NCBI GenBank assembly: GCA_963810305.1
Contig: CAWEMY010000005.1
Location: forward strand, 525,304-589,303
Direction of reading: 5' to 3'
From: an uncultured Acidobacteriota bacterium
Lineage (GTDB): Bacteria > Acidobacteriota > Vicinamibacteria > Vicinamibacterales > 2-12-FULL-66-21
DNA: 64,000 nucleotides
Both the position numbers and the translations under genes were made by a program. Below, one piece after another: positions 5,781 through 62,694 of the stretch. Under the pieces are notes generated by a model that was not told the DNA's origin, did no database searches, and was given only the letters and a program-made list of their open reading frames with translations. Each line of letters starts with the position of its first letter. Position 1 is the stretch's first letter.

Positions 5781-5917
5781 ACGCGGGGCGCGGGGCGCGG
5801 GTCGCAGTGCGGGATGCGCGGTGCGGGATGCGGGATGCGCCTTACACACAACCCGATTCGCGCCACGCCCGCGCCCTGCGAACCGCGCCCTGCGAACCGC
5901 GCACCGCGCCCCGCGCA
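5781..5917. repeat. Intergenic heptamer-repeat block arranged as an imperfect inverted repeat
   Basis: 5782-5837 holds about 8 units of CGCGGGG/CGGGATG type. 5870-5918 holds units CCGCGCC/CTGCGAA, whose complement is the same unit type. It fills the whole gap between convergent apbC and the MFS gene. Confidence 0.8.
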
Positions 5918-7090
5918 CTACGCGCCGCGTGACGGGCGAAGGCGACTCATCGCCATGGCGCCGAGGATCGGGCCGGGCACGAGCAGCAGGAACGCCCACC
6001 GCCATCCATAGCTGGCCGCGACGAGCGGCAGCAGTCTCATGCTCACCATTGTCAACAAGAAGCCGGCGCAGGTTTGGAGTGTCAGCGCGGTGCCGACGTG
6101 CGTGCGCGCGCTGTATTCGCTGACCAGCGCGGAGAACTGCGCGGAGTCGGCAACGACGGAAAAGCCCCAGATCACCGCAAGAACCAGTAACGCCTCGAGC
6201 GGCATGGCGTAGAGCAGCCCGGCGGCGGCCGAACAGGCGCCGCTGGTGATGAGGGCGAGGCGTGCGATTCGCGCTTTTCCCCAGCGATCCGCCCACAGCC
6301 CGGCGACAACGCAACCAGCCGCGCCGCTGGCAATCGCCACAAACGCGACGAGCGATCCGCTGCGGCTGTCCTCTGCCCCGGCTGCCGCCAGCGAGGCTGC
6401 GGCAAACGCAGCGATCCACGCCCACATCGCGTAGAGCTCCCACATGTGCCCGAGGTACCCGTAGGTGGCGAGCCGGGCGCCGCGGTTACGCACGACGGCG
6501 CCAAGCGCGTGCCGATCGAACGGCGCCGATGCCGCAACGTGCGGGCCGTCCTTGACGAAGAGATGGACGATGGCACCGCCAATGACGGCGAGCATCGAGG
6601 AACTCAGCATCAGCGTCCGCCACGACAGGTCGGCGGCACTCCACGACAGAAGGTGCGGAAACGCCGAGCCGAGGGTCAAAGCACCGACCACGACGCCAAG
6701 CGCGCTGCCTCGCCGCTCGAGAAACCAGCCGGCGGCGATTTTCATTCCCGGCGGATACACGCACGCGAGCGCCGCCCCGGTCAGCAGGCGCAGGGCAATG
6801 ATGGTCGATCCATCGGACGACCAGGCGATCGCCGCATTCGCCGCGGCGCCGGCGACACAGCCTGCGGCGAACAGCCGACGGGCGTTGAAAACATCCGCAA
6901 GGTTGAGCACGGCGCTGATCAGCGTTCCGGCAACGAACCCTCCCTGCACGGCGATGGTCAGCCACGCCGTCGCCGATTCCCCCAGAGCCAGCTCCGACGC
7001 AATGCGCGGCGCCGCTGCCGTTGCCGAAAACCACAGCGTCATTCCGAAAAACTGTCCGAGCGCAACGAGCGCCAGCATTCGCTGCGGCAT
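5918..7090 (-). CDS. MFS transporter (390 aa)
   Basis: C-terminal 390 aa of track ORF 5918..9088, starting MPQRMLALVALGQFFG. About 12 hydrophobic helices. The rest of that 1056-aa ORF is antisense to ggt. Confidence 0.85.
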   Translation of the reverse strand: MPQRMLALVALGQFFGMTLWFSATAAAPRIASELALGESATAWLTIAVQGGFVAGTLISAVLNLADVFNARRLFAAGCVAGAAANAAIAWSSDGSTIIALRLLTGAALACVYPPGMKIAAGWFLERRGSALGVVVGALTLGSAFPHLLSWSAADLSWRTLMLSSSMLAVIGGAIVHLFVKDGPHVAASAPFDRHALGAVVRNRGARLATYGYLGHMWELYAMWAWIAAFAAASLAAAGAEDSRSGSLVAFVAIASGAAGCVVAGLWADRWGKARIARLALITSGACSAAAGLLYAMPLEALLVLAVIWGFSVVADSAQFSALVSEYSARTHVGTALTLQTCAGFLLTMVSMRLLPLVAASYGWRWAFLLLVPGPILGAMAMSRLRPSRGA

Positions 7091-7132: not shown

Positions 7133-8980
7133 GTGAAATGGGGGACGCGGTGCGCGGGTCGCGGGGCGCGGGGCGCGGGGCGGGTTGTGGCGATCGTCGC
7201 CGCGTTGGGCATTCACGTTTCGGCGCAGCAGACCTTCAAGCCGATTCGCAGTGAAGTCCGCGCGGACCACGGCGTCGTGGCCGCCGGGCGGACGTTTGTG
7301 GCCGATGCCGGCGCACAGATGCTCGTGTCGGGGGGAAATGCGATCGACGCCGGCGTCGCGTCGATGTTCGCGTCCGCGGTGACCGAGATCTCGCATTTCG
7401 GCCTCGGGGGTGAAGCGCCGATCATCATCTACTCCGCGCGCGACCGGCGGGTCGTCGTGATCAACGGTCAAGGATCCGCGCCCAAGGGAGCGTCCCCGGC
7501 ACTGTTCGAGGGAAAGACCGCGATTCCGGGTAACGGGCCGCTGGGCGCCACCATTCCGGCAGCGGTCGACGCCGCGGCGCTCGCCCTGGAGAAGTACGGC
7601 ACCAAGTCGCTCGCGGAAGTCATGGCGCCGGCGATCGCGCTTGCCGACGGCTTCCCGATGTACGAGTTCCTGCGCGGCTACCTGCAATCCGAACGCAAGG
7701 CCTCGGAACCTTACGAGTGGTCGATCCGTACCTACTATCCCGACGGCAAGATCACCCCCGTCGGGGAGATGTTCCGACAGCCGAACCTCGCGGCCACGTT
7801 GCGGGCGCTGGTCGCCGCGGAGGCGCAGGCCAGAAGCGGCGGCGCGACGCGGGAGCAGGCGATCGTGGCTGGACGCGACGCCTTCTACAAGGGATCCATC
7901 GCCACGCGCATGACCGCGGCGGTCCGTGCGGCCGGCGGTGTGATGACCGACGACGATCTGGCGACCTACCGCGGCAAGGTCGAGGAACCCGCAACCGTGC
8001 CGTACCGGGGATTCACGGTCCACAAGGCCGGCTTCTGGAATCAGGGGCCGGCGCTGCTGCAGACGTTGCGTATCCTCGAGGGCTTCGATCTCGCGAAGAT
8101 GGGGCAGGGATCCGCCGACGCGACCCACACGATCGTCGAAGCGGTGAAGCTTGCGTACGCGGACCGGGACCGTTATTACGCGGATCCGGACTTTGCGCGG
8201 GTTCCGGGGCCGGCATTGCTGTCCGCGGAATACGCGACCGTGCGCCGCGCCTTGATCGATCCCGCGCACGCCAGTATCGAGCAGCGGCCGGGTGATCCAG
8301 AGCGCGGCGCGGCACGTATCGGTACAGATATTCCGGTAGAGGCCGGCTTTAGCCGGCCTGACAGGCCGGGCTCCAGCGTCCACCCAGAACCAGGTGACAC
8401 CACCTCGATCCAGGTTGCCGATGCGGCGGGAAATCTGTTTTCGGCCACGCCGAGTTCCGGATGGCTGCTCGGCGGCGCCTTTGTCGCGGGCGACACCGGT
8501 GTGCCGATGAGCAACCGGATGCAGGCCTTCCGGCTCGAGCCCTCCAGCCCGAACGTGCTCGCCGGCGGTAAACGTCCGCGGACGACGCTCACTCCGACCG
8601 TCGTGTTGAAGGACGGCAAGCCGTTTCTCGCAATCGGCACACCCGGCGGCGACAGCCAGGACCAGCAGATCCTGCTCGTCCTGTTGAACATCATCGACTT
8701 CGGTCTCGACGTGCAGGCCGCGATCGAGGCGCCGCGGGTCAACTCGCTGCATCCGCAGAGCTCGTTCGACGATCATCGCGCGCAGCCTGGCGTCCTCGAA
8801 GTCGAACGGACGCTTGCGCCCGACGTTCTCGAAGTACTGCGGTCCCGCGGGCACGTGCTGCGGCTCCGCACGCCGTACGGCATCTCGACGGGAGTGGTCG
8901 CCGCGGGCATCGATCCTGTCACCGGACGCCTGCGTGGCGGCGCCGATCCACGCCGCGAGCGCGCGCTGGTTGCCTACTAG
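7133..8980 (+). CDS. ggt: Gamma-glutamyltransferase family protein
   Basis: 615 aa with a signal-like N-terminus. The autoprocessing/nucleophile region is PGDTTSIQVADAAGN, and GTPGGDSQ is also present. GTG start at 7133. Confidence 0.9.
   Translation: MKWGTRCAGRGARGAGRVVAIVAALGIHVSAQQTFKPIRSEVRADHGVVAAGRTFVADAGAQMLVSGGNAIDAGVASMFASAVTEISHFGLGGEAPIIIYSARDRRVVVINGQGSAPKGASPALFEGKTAIPGNGPLGATIPAAVDAAALALEKYGTKSLAEVMAPAIALADGFPMYEFLRGYLQSERKASEPYEWSIRTYYPDGKITPVGEMFRQPNLAATLRALVAAEAQARSGGATREQAIVAGRDAFYKGSIATRMTAAVRAAGGVMTDDDLATYRGKVEEPATVPYRGFTVHKAGFWNQGPALLQTLRILEGFDLAKMGQGSADATHTIVEAVKLAYADRDRYYADPDFARVPGPALLSAEYATVRRALIDPAHASIEQRPGDPERGAARIGTDIPVEAGFSRPDRPGSSVHPEPGDTTSIQVADAAGNLFSATPSSGWLLGGAFVAGDTGVPMSNRMQAFRLEPSSPNVLAGGKRPRTTLTPTVVLKDGKPFLAIGTPGGDSQDQQILLVLLNIIDFGLDVQAAIEAPRVNSLHPQSSFDDHRAQPGVLEVERTLAPDVLEVLRSRGHVLRLRTPYGISTGVVAAGIDPVTGRLRGGADPRRERALVAY
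7146..7187 (+). repeat. Six tandem heptamers (CGCGGGG type) inside the first 18 codons of ggt
   Basis: The units are CGCGGTG CGCGGGT CGCGGGG CGCGGGG CGCGGGG CGGGTTG. This is the same unit family as 5782-5837. It encodes the GRGARGAGR n-region of the putative signal peptide. Confidence 0.8.
8336..8368 (+). repeat. Hairpin repeat element (GTAGAGGCCGGCTTTAGCCGGCCT + GACAGGCCGG) in frame within ggt
   Basis: The 9-bp arms AGGCCGGCT/AGCCGGCCT are identical to the copies at 49146-49241 and 59823-59870. Here it is translated as VEAGFSRPDRP. Confidence 0.8.
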
Positions 8981-19075: not shown

Positions 19076-20220
19076 AGGCGTGGGCCTTCATCATCGACAA
19101 CTCGCTGCTCCTGGTCGCGGGAGCCGTATCCGCCCTGGTGTGGGCCAATCTCGATCCGGCGTCGTACGAGCACTTCGCTCACGGGCCGATCCATTTCGCC
19201 ACCAACGACGTCGGTATGGCGTTCTTCTTCGCGCTTGCCGCGAAGCAGATCATCGAGGCCCGCCTTCCCGGGGGCGCGCTGGCCTCGCCGCGAGAAGCCG
19301 CAGTACCCCTGATCGCTGCGGTCGGCGGCATGGCGGGGCCCGCGCTTATCTACGTCGCGCTGGCTTCGGCGCTAGACCGTCCTGAGCTGTATCGGGGCTG
19401 GGCTGTCCCGTGCGCGACCGACATCGCGTTCTCGTACATGGCAGCGCGCCTGATCTTCCCTCCGAGGCACCCGGGCATTCCATTTCTCCTGCTGCTGGCG
19501 ATCGCCGACGATGCGCTCGGCTTGATCCTGCTGGCGGTCTTCTATCCGACCGGGCCGCTCTCGCTCGCTCACCTTCGTCGCCCTGATGGTTCCTGCGATC
19601 GCCGTGTCCTACGCGCTGAAGAAGTTCCGGACGATCAGCTTCTGGCCGTACCTCGCCGTCGGCGGGGGACTGTCCTGGTGCGCCATGTATTTTGGCGGCA
19701 TCCATCCGGCGCTCGCTCTTGTGCCGATCATGCCGCTGATGCCGCACGCCAAGCCGCGATCCTGGGTCTCTTCGACGCCGCGCGAAGGACAGCCTTCCCG
19801 ACACCATGAATCGCTTCGAGCATTTCTTCAAGATGCCGGTCCAATTCATCCTCTTCTTCTTCGGTCTGGTGAATGTCGGAGTGCCGCTCGGTGGCATCGG
19901 CACCGGCACCTGGATCGTGGCTGCTCGCGCTGCTGGTCGGAAAGCCGGTCGGCATCGTTCTGTCGACCGTTCTGTCGATCAACGCGGGCCTCCGCGCGCC
20001 CGGAGGCCTGACCACGGTGCACACCGTGGTGGTCGGCGTCGCCGCCGGCATCGGCTTCACGGTTGCCCTGTTCTTCGCGACCGCCGCCTTCCTGCCAGGT
20101 CCGGTCCTCGACGAAGTCAAGATGGGATCGCTTCTCAGCTTTCTCGCAGCCCCTGGCGCCATCCTGCTCGGCCGCGCCGTCGGGCTTCGCCCGAGCGGAT
20201 CCCGGATCGCTGATCGCTGA
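19072..20220 (+). pseudogene. nhaA: Na+/H+ antiporter NhaA, spread over three frames with about four frame changes
   Basis: NhaA-like segments appear successively in track ORFs 18778..19809, 19586..20011, 18778 frame again, 19806..20213 and 19873..20220. Junctions are near 19565, 19745, 19800 and 19915. Confidence 0.85.
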
Positions 20221-20267
20221 TCGCTTATCCCCAAGAACAGATCCCGCATCCCGGATCCCGGCTCCGC
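20198..20267. repeat. Heptamer tandem repeats (GATCGCT / GATCCCG type)
   Basis: The first array is GATCCCG GATCGCT GATCGCT GATCGCT TATCCCC (20198-20232). The second is GATCCCG CATCCCG GATCCCG GCTCCGC (20240-20267). Looser copies run on to about 20335. The block overlaps the nhaA 3' end. Confidence 0.65.
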
Positions 20268-33686: not shown

Positions 33687-33770
<84 letters not shown>

Positions 33771-47163: not shown

Positions 47164-48414
47164 TCACCGCACGAGTATGGTGGTCCGCAGAAAGCTGGCC
47201 GGGCCGGCGTTGCCCGCGAGCGACGAGCGCTGAGCGGGGTAATTCATGAGGCGCCCGACAACGACCTCTTTGGGATGCGAACCGCACCACGTGGGGGTGT
47301 TCCCCCCGAACACGTCATCGCACATGCCTTCGATAAAGAAGCCGAGCAGGTTGACCACCTTCGCCATGCAATTGTTGCCGCTGCAACCTGACGCGGCGAA
47401 CGCCGCGGTATCGAAGACGGCAATCGGCGCGATCCGGGGGCTGACATTCGTTCCAGTCGGATTGCTGCAGGTGTGAGTCGCCATGCAGCCGCCCTGCACC
47501 TCGTTGGTCACCCAGGTGGCACTTGGATCGAGCGCAATTAGCGCACGCACGCCTTGCTCAGTCGGACCCTGCCGAACGCCCTGGCGCACGTTGAGGCACC
47601 CTCCGGGCAGGTTCATGTCGTCACGTGAATCACAGGGATTAGCCGGGTTGTATATGCCGACCGTCGGCACCCACGTTGGACAGCCCGCGATCTCGTGGCG
47701 ATAGGTATTGGATCCGTTCCCTCCGCCAAGTTCGATTTCGAGCGACCAGCCGCCGCTCCACTGGTTCCGATCCCCTTTGAGTCCGAGCTGGAGGCCGTAG
47801 TCGTTCCCGGGCCCGGTCGCGCTGAATCCTGGTGCGGCGTAGGTGTCGACGCCCGGAGTGAAGATGTCGTCCCGATCCCACCCGGTGGGATCCGAGCCGC
47901 CTGGATTCGAGTTATCGGTCCACTTGTCGGCGACGATCCACGGCTTGATGCACTGAATCGAGTTGCCTGCGCCGGCCATCGCGGTCGCGGTTGCTCTCAC
48001 CCCTTGAGTGTTGATGTTCACCAGCTTTGCAAAGAAGGTCGGAAGATCCTGCTTCGTAATGTCCACCTTGACGCAGCCCGACGGCGTGTTCCACGGCGGT
48101 GGGCAGGCTAACGGGACGGTCACGGTGATATTCCCTGGCGCGACGTAGTCCGCAAGAACCAGGTGCCCCTGGGTCACTTTGGACGCGACTTCCCGTGCGT
48201 GGTTGTCCCCCTGCAATAAGACAAGAGACTGGGCGCCAGCCAGGGCACCGGCGTCGGCGCCGTTCTGCGCCTGTGCCCGCGCCGTCATCATGACGCCGTG
48301 ATCGATGACGAAAGACGATAGGGCCAGGAGTGCGAGGAGGCTGACCGCGACCTGCACCACTACGGCGCCGCGATCAGATTTCAAAGCCATTTGTACATCC
48401 AAACGTCCGATCAT
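47164..48414 (-). CDS. TadG-like protein (N-terminal TadE/G-like pseudopilin-type segment)
   Basis: N-terminus RGAVVVQVAVSLLALLALSSFVIDHGVMMTARAQAQNGADAGALAGA is typical of TadE/TadG-like proteins. No other tad genes are in the window. Confidence 0.7.
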   Translation of the reverse strand: MIGRLDVQMALKSDRGAVVVQVAVSLLALLALSSFVIDHGVMMTARAQAQNGADAGALAGAQSLVLLQGDNHAREVASKVTQGHLVLADYVAPGNITVTVPLACPPPWNTPSGCVKVDITKQDLPTFFAKLVNINTQGVRATATAMAGAGNSIQCIKPWIVADKWTDNSNPGGSDPTGWDRDDIFTPGVDTYAAPGFSATGPGNDYGLQLGLKGDRNQWSGGWSLEIELGGGNGSNTYRHEIAGCPTWVPTVGIYNPANPCDSRDDMNLPGGCLNVRQGVRQGPTEQGVRALIALDPSATWVTNEVQGGCMATHTCSNPTGTNVSPRIAPIAVFDTAAFAASGCSGNNCMAKVVNLLGFFIEGMCDDVFGGNTPTWCGSHPKEVVVGRLMNYPAQRSSLAGNAGPASFLRTTILVR

Positions 48415-48445
48415 TTACGCGAACAGGGGAAACAAGAGGTGACTG

Positions 48446-48608
48446 TCAGGTTGTCCGGCGTCTCCGCGCGGCAACCACACCGGCGAGGCCGCTGGCGAGC
48501 AACAGCATTGAAGCAGGCTCAGGCATCGGTTGAAGATTGGGGTCCTGTTGAACCGCGGTCAGGTCCAAGCGTTGCGGCTAAGACCCCGATCGCTGACACG
48601 TATCTCAT
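48446..48608 (-). pseudogene. Very small PEP-CTERM-tailed protein (~54 aa) with an apparent frame change near 48570
   Basis: The ATG at 48608 gives the signal-like sequence MRYVSAIGVLAATLG. The adjacent frame reads ...DLTAVQQDPNLQPMPEPASMLLLASGLAGVVAARRRRTT*, which is a PEP motif plus TM helix plus Arg cluster. Too short to appear in the ORF track. Confidence 0.45.
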
Positions 48609-49050
48609 TTCTATATCTTTCTTAAAATAACGATGACTGCTGAAGCGCAATCGGAAGGCCAAGCGATCGCGGAGGGCTTTTGCTCGGCAAACGCGAACTG
48701 TCTGTTGAGCAGCGCGAGAAATTCCGCTGCAGGCGCGACTAAACTCGGCGCCGAGTGCGATGGGCCGCTGAGTGCGTCAGGGGAAGAGGACTAGACTGTT
48801 TTTCTGAAAGGAATATACCGTTCTGCGGGAAAAGGCATAGATCCCATTCGAGCCGCTAGCGATGGAAAACGGAAGACGCGAAACGGCGCGGGTGGTTCCG
48901 CTCTGCATGCGGTTACTCGCTACCTTGGAGATGCGGCAGATCGAAAAGGAGGGGATTGGCCCTTCGACTCGCGCCTTCGGCGCTCGCTCAGGGCACTCTC
49001 CGTGTAAGGGACACGGCTGCCACGAGCGAGCCGCGCAGCGGCGAGTCGAG

Positions 49051-49137
49051 TGGTGCGAAAGGGGGGATTCGAACCCCCACGTTCTTGCGAACGCCAGCCC
49101 CTCAAGCTGGTGCGTCTGCCAGTTCCGCCACTTTCGC
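49051..49137 (-). tRNA. tRNA-Leu (anticodon GAG), CCA encoded
   Basis: Reverse complement: GCGAAAG acceptor stem pairing with CTTTCGC, anticodon stem CCAGC/GCTGG with loop TTGAGGG, a long variable arm, T-arm GGGGGTTCGAATCCCCC, and 3' ACCA. Confidence 0.95.
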
Positions 49138-49145
49138 GATGAGGG

Positions 49146-49241
49146 CAGGCCGGCTAAAGCCGGCCTCTACCTGTCGAAGACCAGGCCGGCTAACCCGGCC
49201 TCTACCTGTCGAAGACCAGGCCGGCTAAAGCCGGCCTCTAC
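49146..49241. repeat. 2.7 tandem copies of a 35-nt unit containing the AGGCCGGCTAAAGCCGGCCT hairpin
   Basis: The unit CAGGCCGGCTAAAGCCGGCCTCTACCTGTCGAAGAC starts at 49146, 49181 and 49216. The last copy supplies the secG stop codon. The hairpin is the same as at 8336 and 59823. Confidence 0.85.
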
Positions 49242-49537
49242 TTTGGCTGCTGCTGTTGCTGCGGCGCCGCCGGACTGCCGACTCCCTGGATCAACGAACC
49301 CGGGCCGCGCTGGCCGAGGATCCCGAGCACGATCGCGCCGATCATGAACAGCGCCCCGAGGATCGAGCTGGCACGAGTAAGGACGGTTGCTCCGGCGCGC
49401 GCGCCGAACGCCGTCTGGCTCCCGCCGCCGCCGAACGCGCTTGCCATGTCCCCCCCTTTGCCCTGCTGCAGCAACACCACGAGCAGGAGCAGGAAGCACG
49501 AGAGGACGTACAAGGTCGCGATCAAGTAGTAAAGCAT
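49238..49537 (-). CDS. secG: Preprotein translocase subunit SecG
   Basis: Internal ATG at 49537 gives MLYYLIATLYVLSCFLLLLVVLLQQGKGGDMASAFGGGGSQTAFGARAG..., the hallmark SecG pattern. Confidence 0.85.
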   Translation of the reverse strand: MLYYLIATLYVLSCFLLLLVVLLQQGKGGDMASAFGGGGSQTAFGARAGATVLTRASSILGALFMIGAIVLGILGQRGPGSLIQGVGSPAAPQQQQQPK

Positions 49538-49586
49538 AAGTGCCGATTTTACAGGATCAGCCTCGTTCTTGCACGTTTCCTCACGT

Positions 49587-50192
49587 TCACCCCTGCCAAT
49601 ACGCGTCGGGATCATCCATCGGCAGGACCGCGGCTTCGACCTGAATATGGCCGTTCTTCTTCACGTCGATGGTTCTTTCAGGCACCTCGTACCCAGGTTT
49701 CGAAACGAACAGTCTGTGCTCGGCCCCTGCTACGGCAAACCTGGCCAGGCCGGTTGCGTCGGTCGATCCTCGATAAACACCCAGGCGCACGTGTGCATCA
49801 TGGATCGGGGCTTCCGTGTCCCTTTCCACGACTTTGACGGCCACGAGGTGTTCTGGCGGCGGGACGACCACGAACGTAAACGAGCAGGACGACGCGTGGT
49901 GCGGCAACGGCCGATCGGCTGCGGCAAAGTGAAGGGACCAGGAAAAGACCCCCGGCTCGACCGGCGCGACCACTCCGATGTCAGTCCAATACAATGCCGT
50001 CGTGCCCGGCAGAGGTGCGTCTCCCAGCACCGAGCCGGCTACTATCTCGCCGGCTTCATCGCGGATCTCGATCGGTTGCCCCGCGAGTACACAGCCTGCC
50101 GTGCATCTCGCGGCCACCTTGAGTCCATACCTTTCGCCAATCACGACCGGCGACGGATTGTCCCAGACGGCCAAACTCGTCTCGTGAGGCAT
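49587..50192 (-). CDS. Hypothetical protein with C-terminal carboxypeptidase-regulatory-like (beta-sandwich) domain
   Basis: Internal ATG at 50192, 10 nt after the upstream stop. The C-terminal VRLGVYRGSTDATGLARFAVAGAEHRLFVSKPGYE resembles CarboxypepD_reg-type domains. Confidence 0.55.
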   Translation of the reverse strand: MPHETSLAVWDNPSPVVIGERYGLKVAARCTAGCVLAGQPIEIRDEAGEIVAGSVLGDAPLPGTTALYWTDIGVVAPVEPGVFSWSLHFAAADRPLPHHASSCSFTFVVVPPPEHLVAVKVVERDTEAPIHDAHVRLGVYRGSTDATGLARFAVAGAEHRLFVSKPGYEVPERTIDVKKNGHIQVEAAVLPMDDPDAYWQG

Positions 50193-50202
50193 CGGACCGC
50201 TC

Positions 50203-51936
50203 TTATCCAAGGGGCTTGGCCGCTGCCATTCCCGCCAGCCGTCCGAAGACGGCGCACCTTCCGAGGCCGTGTAGCGCGAATCCGCCCTGGACCTCACCGG
50301 CAGCATACAGTCCCGGGATCACCTCGCCACGAGTATCCATGACCTGGCAGCTGGTGTTCGTTCTGAGACCGGTGACTGAATCGTGGAGACACGGGGTCGC
50401 CCAGGCTGCGTAAAAGGGCGGCCTCGCGATCTTATGTGGCGGGCTGGGCCTCTTGAAGTCCACGTCTACGCCGGTATCCACGAAGGAGTTGAAGCGTTCG
50501 ACCGTTTCCCGAAGGACTGTGGGGGGCATCGGCCTCCGCTGGAATGGGTTTCGGATCTGCCTCGCCAGTTCCTCCAATGTCTCACCGCTGAAGAAATAGC
50601 CGCCCTCCCGATCGACCACCGGCGGCTCGGTCGACCAGCGCTCTCTCTCTACAGCGGCTCGATCGAAGATCGCCCAGATTGGCCCGCCGCCGTTCAGCTT
50701 GTCGGGATCGTCCGTGCCAGCCAGCGCATGGGCAAAGTATCCATCGTGGCTGCCGTCCAGCTCATTGTAGAATCGCCGGCCATTTTCCTTCACGAGGATC
50801 AGATTCTGCCAGTTCGTTACCGACATGCCGCTGGCGCGGGCCCTGAAAAAGACGGGACTCTCAGGAGTGATCAGCGCGCGTGCGTAGTTGTCCTGCGTGG
50901 CGAGGCGTCCCTTGTTCAACACCCGGTGCTGGTGCGCCTGGTTGACGGTGCCCCAGAGGGAGGCGCCGACGGCCATGGCGGCAAGCTCTCCATCACCGTT
51001 GTGGGGCGCCAGCGTATGGCCATGCCACTGATACTCCGACGTCAGGCGCGGGTCGAACAGGCGGCGGAACTGAACATTGTTCCCGTGGCCGCCGGTGCAC
51101 AGGACTACGCCCCTGCGGGCCCGGATATTGATGGTCCGCTCCATGGGCCGGAAATGACGGTCCACCTGCCCGACGGTGACACCTGTCACCCTGCCGGCGG
51201 TGCGCCCTTCCCTGAAGACGCTCAGCATTCTGTGCGACAGGAGAATCTCTACCCCTTTGCGCCGCGCGCTTCGCTCGAGCGCCCTGACGATACCCGACCC
51301 GTTTCTTCGCTGATCGTGGGCCACGAGCTGGCTGCGGATCGGCCATTCACGCGGCCGGATCTCTCTCGGTACCGTCGAAGCGTCCTCGGGCCCGCCGAGG
51401 TAGTCTTCCTCCCAATCGAGTCCGTTCTCGGTCAGAAACTCGAACGTCGCTACAGTCTCGTCGGCAAACATGCGAACGAGCTCTCGATCGTTGAATCTGG
51501 CTGCCACGTGGTCGGGCCGGGTCCAGTCTCTGAAGACCATGTCGGGCGAATCCTCGATGCCCTTCTGCTTCTGGAGCCTGTTGCCGCCACCAAGGTGCAT
51601 GCTGCCGCCGCTCATGATCGCGATTCCGCCGATGTCAAAATGCTGCTCGACCAGCAGCACAGAGGCGCCTCCGTCGCGCGCCGCAATGGCCGCCGGGAGG
51701 CCGGCTGCGCCTGCTCCGAGGACCACGACATCGACTTCGCGGTGCCACTGAATCTCGCCGGCTTGGGCGGCTGGCGCCGCCTGGGTGGCTGACGCAGCTG
51801 TCGGGCCAAGTCCTGCAAGAGTCGCGGCCCCGCCGACGCCGGCGATCGCACCCGACCTGAGGAACTTCCTTCGACTGCCACTACGTGGGTTCCCGCTGTC
51901 ACCGTGCTTTCGACGATCTCGATCTTCGTTGGCCAC
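50203..51936 (-). CDS. Tat-exported FAD-dependent oxidoreductase (fumarate reductase / KstD-like flavoprotein family)
   Basis: Twin-arginine signal SRRKFLRSGAIAGVGGAATLA and dinucleotide motif VDVVVLGAGAAGLPAAIAARDGG. The proposed GTG start near 51936 is approximate. Confidence 0.8.
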   Translation of the reverse strand: MANEDRDRRKHGDSGNPRSGSRRKFLRSGAIAGVGGAATLAGLGPTAASATQAAPAAQAGEIQWHREVDVVVLGAGAAGLPAAIAARDGGASVLLVEQHFDIGGIAIMSGGSMHLGGGNRLQKQKGIEDSPDMVFRDWTRPDHVAARFNDRELVRMFADETVATFEFLTENGLDWEEDYLGGPEDASTVPREIRPREWPIRSQLVAHDQRRNGSGIVRALERSARRKGVEILLSHRMLSVFREGRTAGRVTGVTVGQVDRHFRPMERTINIRARRGVVLCTGGHGNNVQFRRLFDPRLTSEYQWHGHTLAPHNGDGELAAMAVGASLWGTVNQAHQHRVLNKGRLATQDNYARALITPESPVFFRARASGMSVTNWQNLILVKENGRRFYNELDGSHDGYFAHALAGTDDPDKLNGGGPIWAIFDRAAVERERWSTEPPVVDREGGYFFSGETLEELARQIRNPFQRRPMPPTVLRETVERFNSFVDTGVDVDFKRPSPPHKIARPPFYAAWATPCLHDSVTGLRTNTSCQVMDTRGEVIPGLYAAGEVQGGFALHGLGRCAVFGRLAGMAAAKPLG

Positions 51937-52009
51937 TCTGGCGCCTCCGCGTCCGGCGATCTGCCGATGGGTCAAAAGGGAGTACTCGTGGTTGGACCCG
52001 AGTGGTACG

Positions 52010-53589
52010 TCAAAAGCGGTCGATGCCGCTGGTCGTCCCGGCAGGAAGTTTCGCGCCCAACTTGAGGAGCAGGGCCATGGTACTCTCGTACCTGCTGGCC
52101 CCCGCACGCTGACCCACGCCAGCTGCAATCTGGTACGGCGTCAACCCCCGGCGGTCCGCCGCGTTCAGATTCGCGCCCTTGTCGGCCAGGAATTGAACGA
52201 TGCTGTCCCCCTGGATGCTGGCGGCGTGGTGCAGTGCGGTTTGGCCACCCGGACCCGGCGCATCGAGGTCGGCACCAAGGGACGCGATCAGTTGCACGGC
52301 CTCCAGAGCTTTCGCCGCCTCCTCCTTGCTGCGTTCCTGACCCGCCCCGTCAATAATCCGCTTTGCTCCTGCAGCGAGCATCAACGCCGTCGTCCCATCC
52401 TCCAACGCCAGATCCGGATCGGCGCCTGCAGCCAGCATCATGCGCATGATGCGAACGTCACCGGCGGCAGCGGCCAGAGCAAACGGTGTCCCTCCTTCGG
52501 GGTTATTCTCCCGAAACGTAAACATCGCCAGCCGCGAGAAGCGCCGCGTGACCCGAGCGTTCGGATTCGCGCCCCGCGAGAGAAGCGCCTCGACCAGCTG
52601 CGGCATGTTGGGGCGCCGTACGGGATCATGAAAAGGTCTGAAGAGGAAGCCGCTGATTGCGGCCCATCCTTCGGGCACCGCATGATGCAACGCCGTCCAG
52701 CCATAGGCATCCGCCGCATTTGGGTCTGCTCCATGCTCCAGCAGGAACCGGGAGAGCGCCTCATGGCCGCTGGCGGTCGCCATCACCAATGGGCTGGGGT
52801 TCTGTGCCGGCACAAAACAGAGGGGGTCGTCCGGGCCGGTGCGGTCTCGGTCGGTTGTGCCAATGCAGGCCCCACCGGTCAGGTCACGACGGGCTCCGGG
52901 CGCCCGGGAGGTGACCTCGTTCACGTTCGCGCCCGCCGCGACCAGAATCCGGGCTGACTCGAGGTCTCCCTCCTGTGCGGCAAAGAGCAACGCCGTGAAT
53001 CCACCCGTGGAGCGTGCACGCCAATCCGCTCCTGCCTCGATCAGCGCCCGTACGACTTCCGGGTGTTTCGCCGCAACGGCCCGCATCAAGGCCGTATGCC
53101 CCCCTTGCCGTGTCTCCTTCGCATTCACGTCCGCTTGGCGAGACAGCAGGGACTTGACCGCTTCCACGTGGCCCGTGCGGGCGCATGTCATGAGCGCCGT
53201 CTCTCCGGTCCACTGGGTCAGGTTCGGATCAGCGCCAGCCCTCAAGAGGGTCTCGACCATGGCGCGCTCCGATTGACGCAGGCGAGTGTCAGAGGCGTAA
53301 CGCCGTAGGTGTTGGCCAAATTTGGATCGGCGCCAGCGCGAACCAGAAGATCTGCCGTCTCCAGGTTGTCCCGGTGGGCTGCCCACGCCAACGCGGTCGC
53401 TCCATCAGGTTCGGTCGCATCGACCTTTGCGCCCTGTTTTATGAGAGCACGCACGACCGCAGGCGAGCTGCCGTTCTTGACCGCCGCCAGCAGCCGCAGA
53501 TCGTCGGCGGCGACGGGAATACTGGCGGCTGAGAGCATCCACGCCAACGCCCAGCCGGCGCGAACGCTGGTTCCATCCATCGTGAACAC
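52010..53589 (-). pseudogene. Secreted ankyrin-repeat protein (~12 repeats), one frame change near 53265
   Basis: Track ORF 53242..53589 gives a signal peptide and the first repeats, ending at ...GVTPLTLACVNRS. Track ORF 52010..53386 continues ERAMVETLLRAGADPN..., with repeated G.TALH.A motifs. Confidence 0.8.
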
Positions 53590-53592
53590 GCG

Positions 53593-54939
53593 CTACACGG
53601 ACAGCAGGTCGAGCTTCCCGGTGCTGTCGCCAAACTGCTCCACCGGAAGCCCGAGCCTGTCCAGCAAAGCGAGATACATATTCGTCATCGGCGTATCTTT
53701 TGGGTACTGGAGGTGCCGACCGCCTTTGATCCGGCCGTCGCCGTCGCCGAATATCAAGAGCGGCAGATTCCGGAAGTCGTGCGAATTGCCATCGGAGATG
53801 GCGCTGCCGAAGGTGACGATCGAGTGGTCCAGCAGGGAGCCATCGCCGTCGGCAGTCGACCGCAGCTTCTCCACGTAATAGGCGAACAATTCGGATTGCA
53901 GGGTTTCGATCCGGATCACCTTCTCGATCTTCGCGCGATCGCCGCCGTGATGCGTCAAGGGATGATGCGCGTCGGCAATCCCGATTTCGGGGAATGGTCG
54001 ATTCGTCTTCTCACGGCCCATCATGAAAGTGATGACGCGGGTGATATCAGCCTGGAAGGCGAGAACCTGCAAGTCAAACATCAACCTGGCATGTTCCTGG
54101 TAGGTGGCGGGGATCCCGACCGGCCGCTCCACCACAGGCAGCTCCCTGGGACTCTGCTTCTCGGCCACTTCGATGCGACGTTCAATGTCGCGAATGGAAT
54201 GGGCGTACTCGGACAGCTTCGCCTGGTCGCCGGGACCGAGCTCCCGCACAAGATCAGCCATGGCGTGGCTCATCGAGTCGAGGATGCTGCGATTGCGTCG
54301 GAAGCTGGCACGCTGCTCTCGCGCGTCCGTGCTCTGGAGGTCGCCGAACAGCCGCTCGAATACTCGACGCGGATTGTGCTCCATGGGGAGCGGCGTCGTG
54401 GGACCTTGCCAGCAGAGCGTGTTGATATAGGCGCAGTTCCAGCCTCGTTCACATGCGCCGGAGATCCCGGCGGAATCGAGACTGACTTCGAGTGACGTCA
54501 ATTGGGTGTGCTTGCCGATTTCTCTCGCGATGATTTGATCGAACGAAATTCCGTTGCGGAAGTCGCTGCCATCGGTCCACTTCGGCTGAACTCCTGTCAG
54601 ATACGCACCGGCGGGGCGCTCGTGCACGCCGATCTGCTGCCCGGGCAACGCTCGCGCCTGTTCCTGGGAGAGTCCGGTCAGAACGGCGAATCGATCGCGA
54701 TGCGGGGCGAGCGGTTTGAGAAGGCGAGGCAGCTCGAAGTCGTTGCCCGCCGTCGCGGGTGTCCAGTCGTCCATGATCCGGCCATTCGGAACATACACAA
54801 CGCACAATCGCTTCACCGGTTCAAGCGAGCTCGCGCTGGCGAACGCCGGGATCATGGCGTCCAGCGCGGGAAGGGCCACCGCTGCACCGATGCCCCGCAG
54901 AAACGTGCGCCGAGGGATTGCCTTCTTGAAGATCATCAT
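53593..54939 (-). CDS. DUF1501 family protein (sulfatase/alkaline-phosphatase-like fold) with Tat signal
   Basis: N-terminus MMIFKKAIPRRTFLRGIGAAVALPAL, 448 aa. The start overlaps the stop of the upstream DUF1592-type gene (ATGA). Confidence 0.85.
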   Translation of the reverse strand: MMIFKKAIPRRTFLRGIGAAVALPALDAMIPAFASASSLEPVKRLCVVYVPNGRIMDDWTPATAGNDFELPRLLKPLAPHRDRFAVLTGLSQEQARALPGQQIGVHERPAGAYLTGVQPKWTDGSDFRNGISFDQIIAREIGKHTQLTSLEVSLDSAGISGACERGWNCAYINTLCWQGPTTPLPMEHNPRRVFERLFGDLQSTDAREQRASFRRNRSILDSMSHAMADLVRELGPGDQAKLSEYAHSIRDIERRIEVAEKQSPRELPVVERPVGIPATYQEHARLMFDLQVLAFQADITRVITFMMGREKTNRPFPEIGIADAHHPLTHHGGDRAKIEKVIRIETLQSELFAYYVEKLRSTADGDGSLLDHSIVTFGSAISDGNSHDFRNLPLLIFGDGDGRIKGGRHLQYPKDTPMTNMYLALLDRLGLPVEQFGDSTGKLDLLSV

Positions 54940-57486
54940 CGTCTTCTCTCCCTCGCGGTATTTTCCGCAGTCCTCACCTGATCCACCTGATCCGCCGTTC
55001 TCATCTGAAAAGGCACGCTCTTGACGGTAGCCAGGACCAGGGACGACCAGCGATAGTCTGCTCGTGCGGCCTGCCGCACAATGTGCCGAACGGCCGGACC
55101 GTCGTAGTACTCCAGTCCACGCCCAAGAGCGTAGGTCAGTAGCCTCTCTGCGACGGCAGAGGCCAGCCGTTCCGGTGAGCGCAGCAACACTTCTCGAAGT
55201 CCTGCGGGACCCTCAAAGGCGGTCCCATCGGGAAGTACCGCAGAGGCGTCGATGGTGGCGCCCGCGTCTCTGCTTCGCCACCGCCCGATGGCATCGAAAT
55301 TCTCGAGCGCAAAACCCAGCGGGTCCATTGGTGCGTGACACACACTGCAGGCGCGATTCGTACGATGCTTCTCGAGCAGTTGGCGCAACGGCATTTCGCC
55401 GATTGCGCCGGCACTCTCCAGGGCTGGAACGTCAGGGGGAGGTGGCGGAGGGGGCGCGTTCAGGAAGTTCTGCAGGACCCAGTGGCCGCGCAAGACCACG
55501 GACGTCCGATTGGCATACGACGTCACGGTCAGAAGGCTGCCCTGACCAAGGAGGCCGCGGCGCGCATCGAATTCCGGGCCGAGTTTCACCCGCCGAAAGT
55601 GACTCCCGTAAATGTGCGGAATGCCATAATGCCGGGCCAGCCGTTCATTGAGAAACGTATAATCCGCATCCACCAGTCTCAGGACGCTCCGGTCCTCGCG
55701 CACCATGCTCTCGAGGAACAGCTCCGTCTCCTGCCTGAATGCCTCCCGCACCTTCTCATCGAACTCCGGAAACAGCTCTCGATCCGGCTCGGATGCGCCG
55801 AGATTGCGGAGCTGCAACCATTGCGCGGCGAAATTGCGGGCAAACGCGGTTGCAAAGCGCGGATCGGCGAGCATACGCCGCACCTGCCGGTCCATTGTCA
55901 CTGGATCCTTGAGGTTGCCGCTCTCGGCCACCTTCAACAGTTCGTCATCCGGGATACTGCTCCACAGGAAAAACGACAGACGAGAGGCTAGTTGCAGGTC
56001 ACTGATCCGGTAGGGCGGCCCGGCCTTTACGGTCGCCGGCCCAGGTTCGATCCGGAACAGAAACTCGGGTCCGACCAGGATTCGGATCAGCGCCGCCCGA
56101 ATCCCTGCTTCGAAGCCCCCTTCGCTTCGAGCGGACTTGTAGACACCGAGCAGCGCTCGAACGTCCCCGTCCGTGACCGGTCGACGATACGCGCGACGAG
56201 CAAGCGTGGAAAGGATCCTCGTGGCGCAGGGTTCTTCGTCGGCGATGCCCTTGGGGCGGCAGACGAAGACCTTCGCGCGGCTCGGTGTGTCGCCCACGGC
56301 TTCGACGCGGTGAGGTCCCGTGATTTCCACGGTATTGATGGCAGGGCTGCCCCCCTTCCACTGCACCCTGTCGGGCTCGGTCTCGATGCGCGGTCGGACC
56401 ACCGGGTATTCAGGCGTGAGGTTCTCGTGCAGGAACGTGACGCCGACGATCCGCGGGCCCGCCTTGGCGAAAAAGCGTGCCTCCAGGTTGCGATCCACGT
56501 CGACGAGCTGATACGCCTCGCTCGCCTGATCGCCGATGGCGCTCGCCCGCGAAAACGGTGGTCCCGGCGTCTCCATCCTGTCGCCGCCCCCGACCGTGAA
56601 CAACTCGATTCGGCGGCCGTCCAGGCGGATATCCAGGTGATGCGGCTCGAAGAGGCCGATTACATACCCACGCGAATTCCTTTGGAGGGTGATCTTGACC
56701 GTATATTCACCGTCGGCCGGAAAGTACTGGCGAATCGCCACGCCGCCGCGGGAGCCGAACGGGAGATCCTCGCTCATCCGCTCCTCTTGCAGCAGGAGTG
56801 GGTTGACCTTTATCGAAAACGAAGACGGCTGGACGTCACGCTCTCCGACTGCAAGCCCACTGATCCGACGGGCCACGGACAGATACTGCTCGAGCAGTCC
56901 AGACGTGACCGAAAGGGCGGATCCGATATTGTCGAAGCCGTGCTGCGTCTCGTCGATCGGCAGGAGCCCGTCGCCATCGATCTCGATTGCCAGCAGGTCG
57001 CGGATGGCGTTGGTGTACCAGGTACGATTGAGACGGCGGAGAACAACCTTGCCAGGACGCGGATCCGCGAGGGCCGCGCGATCCAGTTCAGTCTCGAGAT
57101 AGGCGACGAATGCGTCCAATGCGGGTTTGTCCGGTCGCCGCATCCCCACCGGTGGCATCTGGCCTGCCCTCAGCTTTGCGACGACTTTCTCCCACGTCTC
57201 CGGAGTGTTCACCGACCTGCTCGATGGAAAGCTGATCGAGTACCAGTCCTCCCGTGGCGAGGCGGGCGTTGTGGCAGGTGACGCAGTAGTCTTTGACGAG
57301 CGCGCCGTAATCCGAAGCGGTAAGTGGGGGCAGCGATGGGACAGATGCGGCCCGGCTCGTCATCGGCCGAAATGCTTCGGCCCTGAAGGGCGCGGTGTCT
57401 GGGCTGGCGGGCCGAAGGTACCCGGCTGCACCAAGCGCGATTGTGCCGGCTAGAACGCCGACGCAACCCCAGAACACTCTTCTCAC
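54936..57486 (-). pseudogene. DUF1592/DUF1588/DUF1595-type protein with N-terminal heme-binding CxxCH module, one frame change near 57215
   Basis: Track ORF 57088..57486 gives a signal anchor and CVTCHN...GGLVLDQLSIEQ. Track ORF 54936..57212 continues NTPETWEKVVAKLRAGQMPP... and contains a second CSVCH. This architecture is typical of the partner of DUF1501. Confidence 0.8.
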
Positions 57487-57641
57487 TGACTCCCCCTTGC
57501 AGAGCCGATGGCGCGTGCGACACTTCGGGTCGGGGCGATTATAGCAACTACCTTCGTGGCTCCAACCTCAGAGCGGCAGGGACGTTCGTCGGCAGCGCCT
57601 GCCGACGTAGAATGTGTCGCGTGAGGCCAACTCGCCCGGAG

Positions 57642-58262
57642 ATGCCCCCAGGACGCGGCAAGATACATACATCGATTGCGGCCGTTGCCTGCCTCTTGCT
57701 GACGTTGGGATATGGGGCCTCCGCCACAATCAGCCAGGTCGCGCCTCGTTCGCCATCGATCTGGGATGGGGTCTTCTCTGAAGCGCAAGTCCGACGGGGG
57801 AAACAGGCTTATCAGGCTAGCTGCGCCGCGTGCCATGGCGACGACCTGGTTGCTGTGGATCCCGAATCGCCTTCCCTGACGGGCCCGCGGTTCAAAGTGG
57901 CGTGGATTGGCAAGACGATCGCCGAGCCGTTTGAGTTGACGCGAAAGACGATGCCGCCCACCAGCCCCGGCAGCCTTGACAACCAGACGAATGTCGACAT
58001 TCTGGCGTTTGTTCTCGAGTTCAACGGTTACCCCACTGGAGCGAAGGAGCTGGGAGTCGATCTCGCTGTTCTGAAGAGCATCCTGATCGAGCGGGCGGAG
58101 AACCGGCCGCGGCGCTTCGATCCGTTCAGGTCCTCTATACCGCGCTTTGGCGGCTTCGCGACAGGATCTCCGAGAACGCGCGGATCTCGAGGCTGGCGCC
58201 GCCGACAAGCGCGCCATCGACCTCCGGCAACACCATCAGCTCGTGAATGTTGTCGGGTTTGA
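57642..58262 (+). CDS. Secreted c-type cytochrome
   Basis: MPPGRGKIHTSIAAVACLLLTLGYGASA signal peptide and one CxxCH motif (CAACH). The last ~40 codons overlap the tpiA 3' end on the other strand and look non-native, so the true 3' end is uncertain. Confidence 0.6.
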   Translation: MPPGRGKIHTSIAAVACLLLTLGYGASATISQVAPRSPSIWDGVFSEAQVRRGKQAYQASCAACHGDDLVAVDPESPSLTGPRFKVAWIGKTIAEPFELTRKTMPPTSPGSLDNQTNVDILAFVLEFNGYPTGAKELGVDLAVLKSILIERAENRPRRFDPFRSSIPRFGGFATGSPRTRGSRGWRRRQARHRPPATPSARECCRV

Positions 58263-58920: not shown

Positions 58921-58976
58921 GTGCGACGTGCGACGTGCGACGTGCGACGTGCGACGTGCTACGTGCTAGGTGCCAA
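58921..58976. repeat. Eight tandem heptamers GTGCGAC (5 perfect, 3 degenerate) between pgk and tpiA
   Basis: GTGCGAC x5, then GTGCTAC, GTGCTAG, GTGCCAA. The last units encode the final pgk codons and its TAG stop. Confidence 0.85.
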
Positions 58977-60149
58977 TGCCTCCACGCCCGGTAGTTTACG
59001 TCCGCCGAGGAATTCGAGCGAGGCCCCACCGCCGGTCGAGATGTGGGTGATCCGGTCGGTCACTCCCGCCTTTGCCACGGCGGCGATCGAGTCGCCGCCG
59101 CCGATGACGGTCGTGCCCTTCACTTCGGCCACCGCCTTGGCGATCTCGATGGTGCCGGTCGCGAAGGCGTCGATTTCGAACACGCCCATCGGCCCGTTCC
59201 ACGTCACAGTCTGTGCTGTCCTCAGGACCCGATGATAGCGCTCGATGGTCTTTGGTCCGATATCGAGACCCTTGCGGTCACCGATGCGTGGATCGCCGAT
59301 ATCGAGCATCTCGGTCGGCGCGCCGGCCTCGATTTTCGATGCGACGACGTGATCGACCGGAAGCTCCAGGCGCAGATTTCGCGCGCGCGCTTTCTCTTCG
59401 ACGTCACGGGCAGCATCGAGCAGGTCCTCCTCGACAAGGGAGGTGCCTACCGGAACACCGCGCGCCTTGAGAAACGTGTATGCCATCGCGCCGCCGACCA
59501 ACAGGGCATCCAGCCGCGGGACCAGATTCTGAATCACCTCGAGCTTGTCCGAAACCTTGGCCCCTCCGAGGATCGCGACGAACGGCCGGGAAGGGTTTTC
59601 GAGCACACGCCCGAGGTACTCGACTTCCGCCGCCATCAACAGTCCCGCCGCCGACTCTTTGACGTGCCGGACGATCCCTTCGGTTGACGCATGCGCGCGA
59701 TGCGCGGATCCGAAGGCATCGTTGATATAGACGTCCGCCATGGAACCAAGTTGGGCGGCGTAGGCGGGATCGTTCTTTTCCTCGCCGGCGTTGAAGCGCA
59801 GGTTTTCGAGGAGGACGATTCCAGGCCGGCTGTCAGGCCGGCTGTCAGGCCGGCTAAAGCCGGCCTCTACAGCGGAATCGAACTTCACCGGCTGGCCGAG
59901 GAGCTCGCTCAGCCTGGTCGCCACCGGCTGGAGCGAGTATTGAGGGTCGGGCTTCCCTTTGGGACGTCCGAGGTGCGAGGCGAGGATGATGACCTTCGCG
60001 CCGTTCTCGAGCGCGTACTTGATGGTCGGCAGCGACGCCCGGATGCGCGTATCGTCGGTGATCCTGCCGTCCTTCAGCGGAACGTTGAAATCGACCCGGA
60101 TGAAGACACGCTTGCCGCGGAGATCCAGGTCCTTGACGGTCCTCAGCAC
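58959..60149 (-). CDS. pgk: Phosphoglycerate kinase (intact ORF carrying an in-frame repeat element)
   Basis: Motifs FIRVDFNVP, ASHLGRPKG, LLENLRFNAGEEKND and ISTGGGASLEFL. The start abuts the gap stop with no spacer. Confidence 0.92.
   Translation of the reverse strand: MLRTVKDLDLRGKRVFIRVDFNVPLKDGRITDDTRIRASLPTIKYALENGAKVIILASHLGRPKGKPDPQYSLQPVATRLSELLGQPVKFDSAVEAGFSRPDSRPDSRPGIVLLENLRFNAGEEKNDPAYAAQLGSMADVYINDAFGSAHRAHASTEGIVRHVKESAAGLLMAAEVEYLGRVLENPSRPFVAILGGAKVSDKLEVIQNLVPRLDALLVGGAMAYTFLKARGVPVGTSLVEEDLLDAARDVEEKARARNLRLELPVDHVVASKIEAGAPTEMLDIGDPRIGDRKGLDIGPKTIERYHRVLRTAQTVTWNGPMGVFEIDAFATGTIEIAKAVAEVKGTTVIGGGDSIAAVAKAGVTDRITHISTGGGASLEFLGGRKLPGVEALAPST
59823..59870 (-). repeat. Hairpin repeat element in frame within pgk (codons 94-109: VEAGFSRPDSRPDSRP)
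   Basis: On the coding strand it reads GTAGAGGCCGGCTTTAGCCGGCCT followed by 2 x GACAGCCGGCCT. The core is identical to 8336-8359 and the 49146-49241 units. Confidence 0.8.
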
Positions 60150-62579: not shown

Positions 62580-62584
62580 GAAGC

Positions 62585-62664
62585 GTGCGACGTGCGACGT
62601 GCGACGTGCGACGTGCGACGTGCGACGTGCGATGTGCGACGTGCTGACGTGCTGACGTGCGCAC
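62585..62664. repeat. Tandem GTGCGAC heptamers (8 copies) followed by 3 octamer variants, between waaA and lpxK
   Basis: GTGCGAC x6, GTGCGAT, GTGCGAC, then GTGCTGAC x2 and GTGCGCAC. This is the same unit as at 58921-58976. Confidence 0.85.
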
Positions 62665-62694
62665 GTGCCGGGTTGCAACGTGCTCATGTAATTA

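Follow-up and report, generated by a model that had tools for sequence, protein, structure and literature searches.

The 100-nt spacer between secG and the gene for tRNA-Leu(GAG) in an uncultured Vicinamibacterales-type acidobacterium is almost filled by a head-to-tail cluster of three GTAG-tagged REPs, which belong to a family dispersed in this genome; this identification is well supported. The initial annotation described the triplet as a hairpin element and overlooked that its class is the GTAG-tagged REP, a selfish kind of repeat that is already known and is found here in uncultured Vicinamibacterales. The explanation as a whole is given a probability of about 0.7; REP cluster identity and local origin of the triplet are its well-supported parts, and protection of the 3' end of secG mRNA is its tentative part. 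In the following, the window denotes the whole stretch of 64,000 nucleotides that was analysed.

Layout of the locus and identity of the repeats

The array lies between the 3' end of secG and tRNA-Leu(GAG), with all three on the minus strand as originally described; the coordinates derive from the ORF list, ARAGORN and Rfam.

49238..49537, minus strand: secG coding sequence, 99 aa, ATG at 49537, stop codon TAG at 49240..49238 (ORF list)
49218..49241, minus strand: REP1, GTAG AGGCCGGC TTTA GCCGGCCT, -17.3 kcal/mol
49206..49217, minus strand: linker 1, GGTCTTCGACAG, 12 nt
49183..49205, minus strand: REP2, degenerate, GTAG AGGCCGG GTTAG CCGGCCT, 7-bp stem, -15.0 kcal/mol
49171..49182, minus strand: linker 2, identical in sequence to linker 1
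49147..49170, minus strand: REP3, same sequence as REP1
49138..49146, minus strand: pyrimidine-rich 5' leader of the tRNA, GCCCTCATC, 9 nt
49051..49137, minus strand: tRNA-Leu(GAG), equivalent of leuU (ARAGORN; Rfam RF00005, 52.9 bits)

The three REPs share one orientation on the sense strand of the secG-tRNA unit and form an array of 95 nt (49147..49241), of which 91 nt belong to the spacer and the rest is made up of the TAG of secG and the G that closes its final Lys codon. Nine nucleotides separate the last hairpin from position +1 of the tRNA. Tandem Repeats Finder reports 49146..49241 with a period of 35, 2.7 copies, 93% matches and a score of 178, which is far above that of every other tandem repeat in the window. 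This agrees with the 2.7 copies of a 35-nt unit counted in the initial annotation, although the unit quoted there is 36 nt long and the true periods are 36 and 35. The degenerate loop noted for the middle copy is borne out: compared to REP1, REP2 lacks one stem pair and one T of the loop. The secG reading frame ends with ...QQQQQPK, its last codons being CAG CCA AAG TAG. The G of AAG is located at 49241 and, together with the TAG at 49240..49238, constitutes the GTAG head of REP1, so that the stop codon of secG is indeed the TAG of the element. The exact SecG protein is annotated as PF03840 SecG on a JGI contig and has 4863 homologues. Further downstream on the minus strand, a 40-codon ORF (48446..48568) carries a PEP-CTERM-like sorting signal at its end (PEPASMLLLASGLAGVVAARRRRTT). 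This ORF adjoins a Tad/Flp-pilus-like gene (47164..48414) and could represent the tail of a gene that is longer or frameshifted.

The repeat unit comprises 23-24 nt with a perfect stem of 7-8 bp and a loop of 4-5 nt, and a typical copy consists of GTAG and an 8-bp GC stem closed by TTTA. GTAG plus hairpin is found in five out of five window copies, which are distributed over three loci within 64 kb, the 24-mer GTAGAGGCCGGCTTTAGCCGGCCT being present also at 8336 (plus strand) and 59870 (minus strand). The 20-nt core has four matches in the window, none of which is to the degenerate REP2, versus 0.00 expected from 100 dinucleotide-preserving shuffles. The exact 24-mer is rare among species-representative genomes: with one genome scanned per species, it turned up in six stretches, four of which stem from Vicinamibacterales MAGs, and the exact matches in other genomes (Vicinamibacterales and Acidobacteria MAGs) all carry GTAG. 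In some of the MAGs, the copy is joined head-to-head to a hairpin whose stem differs (...CTAC GTAC GTAG...); head-to-head pairs are present in the related loci L002, L003 and L048, and L003 features a five-unit array. Throughout 372 kb of related loci, six of which were retrieved via this 24-mer, perfect hairpins are directly preceded by GTAG more often than by any other tetranucleotide, and TTTA and TTCA dominate among the loops. A census of all perfect hairpins in the window revealed no other GTAG-tagged family. Two REP loci reside in 21 kb of the 95%-identical genome L095. The distance of the REP from the ORF end is 0 nt at secG. The remaining two loci in the window lie inside genes, an unusual setting for a repeat that is called 'extragenic'.

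This build is known from the GTAG-tagged REP superfamily (Di Nocera et al. 2013, PMC3733652), in which GTAG likewise stands beside a short perfect GC-rich palindrome. Its members are dispersed, occur as head-to-head dimers and as tandem, head-to-tail groups reiterated with their flank, are positioned near the 3' end of an upstream ORF, to which the TAG of GTAG is often supplied as stop codon, and are occasionally found in-frame inside genes (PMC3733652). Units of this class are palindromic stem-loops of 20-40 bp with GTAG 0-2 nt away from the stem; they are mostly extragenic, number many dispersed copies in a genome, occur as singletons and as head-to-tail and tail-to-tail dimers too, and typically flank the gene for a cognate RAYT (REPtron). 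Marinomonas REPMb and Stenotrophomonas REPSm, both substrates of RAYT enzymes, are GTAG-flanked palindromes of the same type, and in the characterized substrate REPMb a small, perfect palindrome closed by a TTTA loop adjoins GTAG (PMC8266576). A RAYT-type HUH tyrosine transposase would be the mobilising enzyme. The present case differs from the known GTAG REPs in its host, an uncultured Vicinamibacterales-type acidobacterium, and in that a cognate RAYT gene was seen neither in the window nor in ~390 kb of fetched loci when these were searched with a regular expression for the motif HUH...Y..NP, which makes for a weak test. In the literature consulted, Acidobacteria feature other repeats linked to tyrosine transposases, the latter being TIR-flanked or of class 3, and not REP families.

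The REP/BIME elements of E. coli share the GTAG head, the palindrome and the occurrence in extragenic clusters, and they have known effects on the stability of upstream mRNA. Their palindromes are, however, longer and imperfect with a required bulge, whereas the stems are perfect and comprise 8 bp here. BIMEs of E. coli alternate in orientation; with its three copies in the same orientation and its identical 12-nt linkers, the triplet was ruled out as a BIME of this type. When positions 48400..49700 were searched with Rfam 15, only the tRNA passed, and this covariance search returned no match to the array. A match to SorX with 16.9 bits (gathering score 46.6, E = 0.5) and a weak plastid match are considered chance.

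In L003, a MAG labelled Acidimicrobiia, positions 1060..1560 between an ArsR-methyltransferase gene and ahcY hold five head-to-head REP dimers with a period of ~110 bp, each of which pairs the REP described here with a partner of GGGCCGAC stem. Positions 5012..5100 of L095, just beyond the point corresponding to the window end, hold a REP cluster within or beside a Glyco_transf_9 gene call. A truncated REP and a full REP of this family are joined there by two inverted hairpins whose stem is a different one (AGGCCGAC...). The window also contains GC-rich heptamer tandem arrays that are mostly intergenic (58921..58973, 62584..62668, 5782..5929, 7142..7182, 20205..20265 and 33687..33768). The heptamer GTGCGAC is arrayed at two separate sites, and at several loci two different arrays are placed side by side around a short centre. 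These arrays of 7-8-nt units are a second repeat class, apart from the REP.

Copies within pgk and a gamma-glutamyltranspeptidase gene

The two intragenic REP loci are found in genes for phosphoglycerate kinase (PGK) and gamma-glutamyltranspeptidase (GGT):

59822..59870, minus strand: REP in pgk (58959..60149), in-frame, VEAGFSRPD
8336..8364, plus strand: REP in the gamma-glutamyltranspeptidase gene (ORF 7133..8980), in-frame, IPVEAGFSRPDRPG

Both copies are read in the same frame and contribute VEAGFSRPD. In GGT, the element falls into the variable stretch that links the large subunit to the catalytic Thr423, 14 residues before the latter. In pgk, the REP runs into an array of 2.8 tandem copies of its own 12-nt 3' half (SRPD-SRPD-SRPG). 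More distant PGKs carry a helix of ~20 residues at the position of the REP, and gap-free alignments had suggested a replacement of this helix by an insert of equal length. This was ruled out, as closer homologues are already short-looped: the next-closest PGKs, with 76-78% identity, feature the short loop FNDPKADGVVLLENLRFN (FNDPKADGVV) at this place. The 97%-identical homologue P0121 from L095, encoded on a 1.2-Mb contig, contains the REP with a TTCA loop (L095 position 10280) and two half-REP units (SRPD/E) as opposed to three in the window. Judged from these alignments, the pgk copy represents a true in-frame insertion, 16 residues long and common to close relatives, with polymorphic 12-nt slippage.

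In-frame palindromes in functional genes are also known from the Rickettsia palindromic elements (RPE) and from the intragenic GTAG REPs of Opitutus terrae. The likeness to RPE concerns the dispersed copies in pgk and GGT and not the triplet after secG. RPE-1 is much longer than the window REP, and RPE-4 and RPE-6 are classified as tagged by CGTC and not by GTAG.

History of the spacer and hairpins after secG in relatives

The order secG followed by tRNA-Leu(GAG) is kept in ~45 of 80 related metagenome loci, with spacers of 9-126 nt and one outlier of 448 nt. L088, L089 and L090, whose DNA is 82-88% identical to that of the window, lack the element and show AAG TAG CTCTCTCCCTCATT directly followed by the tRNA, i.e. 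a spacer of 14 nt with no hairpin. L007 is 95% identical at the DNA level, encodes an identical SecG protein and contains a single REP with a TGCA loop at the same place. Its unique flank after the REP (...TCTTCGACAC; ...GGTCTGATCTTCGACAC) is homologous to the 12-nt linker of the window. In L091, an 8-nt tandem array takes the place of the REP, and L092 has yet another insert. The C/T-rich tRNA leader of ~9 nt is retained in all of these states and reads ...CCCTCATT in the element-free relatives. Presence, absence and copy number of the REP (0, 1 or 3) thus differ between genomes that are 82-95% identical.

Comparison of the relatives shows the course of events. The ancestral locus consisted of secG ending with AAG-TAG, a C/T-rich spacer of ~14 nt and tRNA-Leu(GAG). 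A REP came to abut G-TAG before the lineages of the window and L007 split, and the window lineage then reiterated the REP together with ~12 nt of its flank to three copies, one of which has started to decay. The linkers are flanking DNA that was co-amplified with the REP, and the 9-nt tRNA leader stayed untouched. Since the ~95%-identical L007 has only one copy, the triplet is a recent local expansion.

The initial annotation had proposed that insertion of the element redefined the C-terminus of SecG. An inserted element that created a new stop and shortened or altered the protein would place the stop TAG inside the GTAG head, as is observed, and yet nearly all of 120 homologues end with ...PK or ...KK, and the element-free relatives (L088-L090, L029, L044 and L049) terminate with AAG-TAG or AAG-TAA at the same position. 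The AAG-TAG end in element-free relatives and the conserved tails therefore refute the redefinition, which retains hardly any probability. Relatives with an unchanged SecG end but no element are what the initial annotation itself had named as a refutation. The same comparison indicates that the AAG-TAG end is ancestral and that the stop codon predates the element, whose GTAG head coincides with it. As the native stop doubles as the GTAG head of REP1, the SecG protein is unchanged. By analogy with IS608, we considered that the native GTAG formed by AAG and TAG might have served as a pre-existing insertion target; however, biochemical work regards GTAG as a guide or recognition motif belonging to the REP itself, with cleavage at CT or CA (PMC8266576).

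Hairpins after secG are not confined to the window and L007. Other GTAG hairpins in the relatives' spacers have the stems GCAGCCC, CCGGGCC, GCCCGACC, AGGCGGGC, CGCGCACGC, GTCCGGC, CGTCCGGC and GCGACCCT, and a further one is inverted, amounting to about 10 different stems in all. In L011 and L012, and by eye also in L038, the hairpin directly adjoins the stop codon too, with aaG-TAG serving as its head. Eleven of the 17 GTAG hairpins in 85 non-redundant related loci are situated no more than 150 nt after the secG stop, an enrichment with p ~1e-12 per base, or 8e-5 versus an assumed non-coding background of 15%, in a calculation that disregards both the shared ancestry of the loci and the general preference of REPs for gene 3' ends. 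In addition, tandem arrays of 7-8-nt units, some of them inverted pairs, fill the secG-tRNA spacer in L091, L030, L056, L059, L062, L077 and L081.

It is conceivable, albeit on the unlikely side, that the short secG-tRNA-Leu(GAG) spacer of Vicinamibacteria is a selected docking site to which hairpin repeats, seen as ~10 GTAG-REP stems and elsewhere as inverted 7-8-nt tandem arrays, are repeatedly recruited and where they shield secG mRNA from the kind of exonucleolytic decay that the RNase P cut sets off in E. coli. If this were true, selfish REPs would repeatedly have been put to use as 3' stabilisers of a tRNA-fused mRNA, and their copy number, one in L007 versus three here, would tune the ratio of SecG to tRNA-Leu. 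GTAG-headed hairpins with TTCA or TTTA loops at the same place in many relatives could also be taken for a vertically inherited, conserved cis-regulatory RNA hairpin that is not mobile and whose stem differences reflect compensatory evolution. We regard this as very improbable: the nearest element-free relatives L088-L090 are devoid of any hairpin, L091 and L092 contain other inserts, the identical 24-mer is dispersed to pgk, GGT and other genomes, and there is no Rfam match.

One side observation concerns the other flank of secG. A block of 8.5 kb (49583..58131) separates tpiA from secG in the window, in which respect the locus also differs from E. coli secG-leuU, and the tpiA-secG gap measures 9 nt in L007, L088 and most relatives. 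The block encodes a cytochrome-like ORF, a DUF1592/DUF1552 pair, an ankyrin-repeat protein, an FAD oxidoreductase and a CarboxypepD_reg-like protein. It is inverted in the 95%-identical L095, with no obvious inverted repeats at the junctions.

Transcription, folding and possible function of the array

In E. coli, secG is likewise followed by a tRNA-Leu(GAG) gene, leuU, on the same strand (Mohanty and Kushner 2008, PMC2241853), and the analogy drawn in the initial annotation holds in that the two are co-transcribed there and separated by RNase P. The cut at the 5' end of the tRNA leaves a 14-nt spacer on the mRNA, and this unstructured tail is open to 3' exonucleolytic decay, resulting in a half-life of less than 30 s (PMC2241853). 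The spacer of the element-free relatives has exactly the same length of 14 nt, and a terminator-like hairpin after the tRNA is common to E. coli and the window. The E. coli spacer is unstructured, in contrast to the window, in which 91 of 100 nt are occupied by the hairpin array.

Several observations bear on transcription of the locus. A scan detected neither promoter-like nor terminator-like sites in the secG-tRNA spacer, and a 2.7-kb region was also found to be free of promoter-like sites, so it is probable that the tRNA relies on read-through. In the relatives, the spacer shrinks to as little as 9-17 nt, too short to accommodate a separate tRNA promoter. The arrangement supports co-transcription of secG and tRNA-Leu(GAG), as far as can be judged from the DNA. 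Nothing in 49146..49241 matches an intrinsic terminator; the hairpins are followed by GGUCUUCGACAG or GCCCUCAUC and not by a U-run. A different structure is present on the other side of the tRNA:

48964..49049, minus strand: long imperfect hairpin of 86 nt, 2 nt after the tRNA 3' end, with CCUCCUUUUCGAU 13 nt later

The 156-nt stretch folded around this hairpin yields -67 kcal/mol (z = -2.8). The hairpin was missed by the simple terminator scan; with its U-run, it is the candidate for the operon terminator, probably the actual one, and fits better than the REP array. In L044, the sequence downstream of the tRNA matches 39 nt of it with 95% identity, and the post-tRNA hairpin of L007 is different and shorter.

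The whole spacer folds better than each of 200 shuffles (200/200, z = -3.9). The optimum is a nested fold in which REP1 pairs with REP3 (-64.4 kcal/mol versus -49.6 kcal/mol for three local hairpins), and because the nested fold is favoured, the real shape of the RNA is uncertain.

Elements of this class may plausibly influence the stability or processing of RNA, as the initial annotation suggested. In the scheme that we propose, secG and the tRNA would be transcribed as one RNA, and RNA polymerase would read through the hairpins because they lack a U-tract. RNase P would then cut at the 5' end of the tRNA, 9 nt after the last hairpin, so that secG mRNA would end with three hairpins of -15 to -17 kcal/mol each. 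There, they may block exonucleases and lengthen the life of the message, which would be the classical REP effect, and the life of secG mRNA would thus be uncoupled from tRNA processing. That the hairpins protect the mRNA 3' end after RNase P has released the tRNA is put forward tentatively as the most likely effect of the array, although it is in itself less probable than not.

Possibly, the triplet is simply a neutral passenger in a spacer that tolerates insertion and slippage, with no measurable effect on the expression of secG or tRNA-Leu, an interpretation that we consider doubtful yet worth serious attention. It would agree with the shifts in presence and copy number among the 82-95% identical genomes, with the unrelated 7-8-nt arrays in the same spacer of L091, L030, L056, L059, L062 and L077, and with the fact that REPs are tolerated even inside pgk and GGT. 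It does not sit well with the strong enrichment of GTAG hairpins with ~10 stems directly after secG, and the E. coli data make it unlikely that exonucleases would fail to notice hairpins of -15 to -17 kcal/mol located at a 3' end made by RNase P (PMC2241853).

Alternatively, the stem that starts 0 nt after the TAG could act as a brake on translation termination, such that the terminating ribosome must melt REP1 and stalls, SecG output is lowered and tmRNA comes to the rescue. Liang, Rudd and Deutscher reportedly found in 2015 that REPs within ~15 nt of the stop codon lower expression in E. coli via ribosome stalling, which speaks for such a brake. On the other hand, SecG is a core subunit of the translocon, for which a brake would need a rationale, and the ribosome can reach no hairpin beyond the first, leaving the expansion to three copies unexplained. 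On balance, we deem the brake improbable.

It is even less likely that the array is a transcription attenuator or pause site that diminishes read-through into tRNA-Leu and thereby sets the ratio of secG mRNA to tRNA. Three consecutive stable hairpins on the transcribed strand are what such a site might look like, and a report of transcription attenuation at E. coli BIMEs is listed among the references of PMC8266576. However, none of the hairpins is followed by a U-run, the tRNA itself probably needs the read-through that would be curtailed, and the long hairpin with its U-run after the tRNA fits a terminator better.

The assignment to the GTAG-tagged REPs places the triple hairpin in a known repeat class and does away with the notion of an essential translocon protein being reshaped by a mobile element. 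These REPs are thereby extended to uncultured Vicinamibacterales and thus to an under-studied phylum, the Acidobacteria, in which the same REP is tolerated in-frame in pgk and in the gamma-glutamyltranspeptidase gene. At secG, genomes of 82-95% identity with none, one or three hairpins at an mRNA 3' end generated by RNase P make up a natural experiment, and the work on E. coli predicts that such hairpins would have a large effect on mRNA life.
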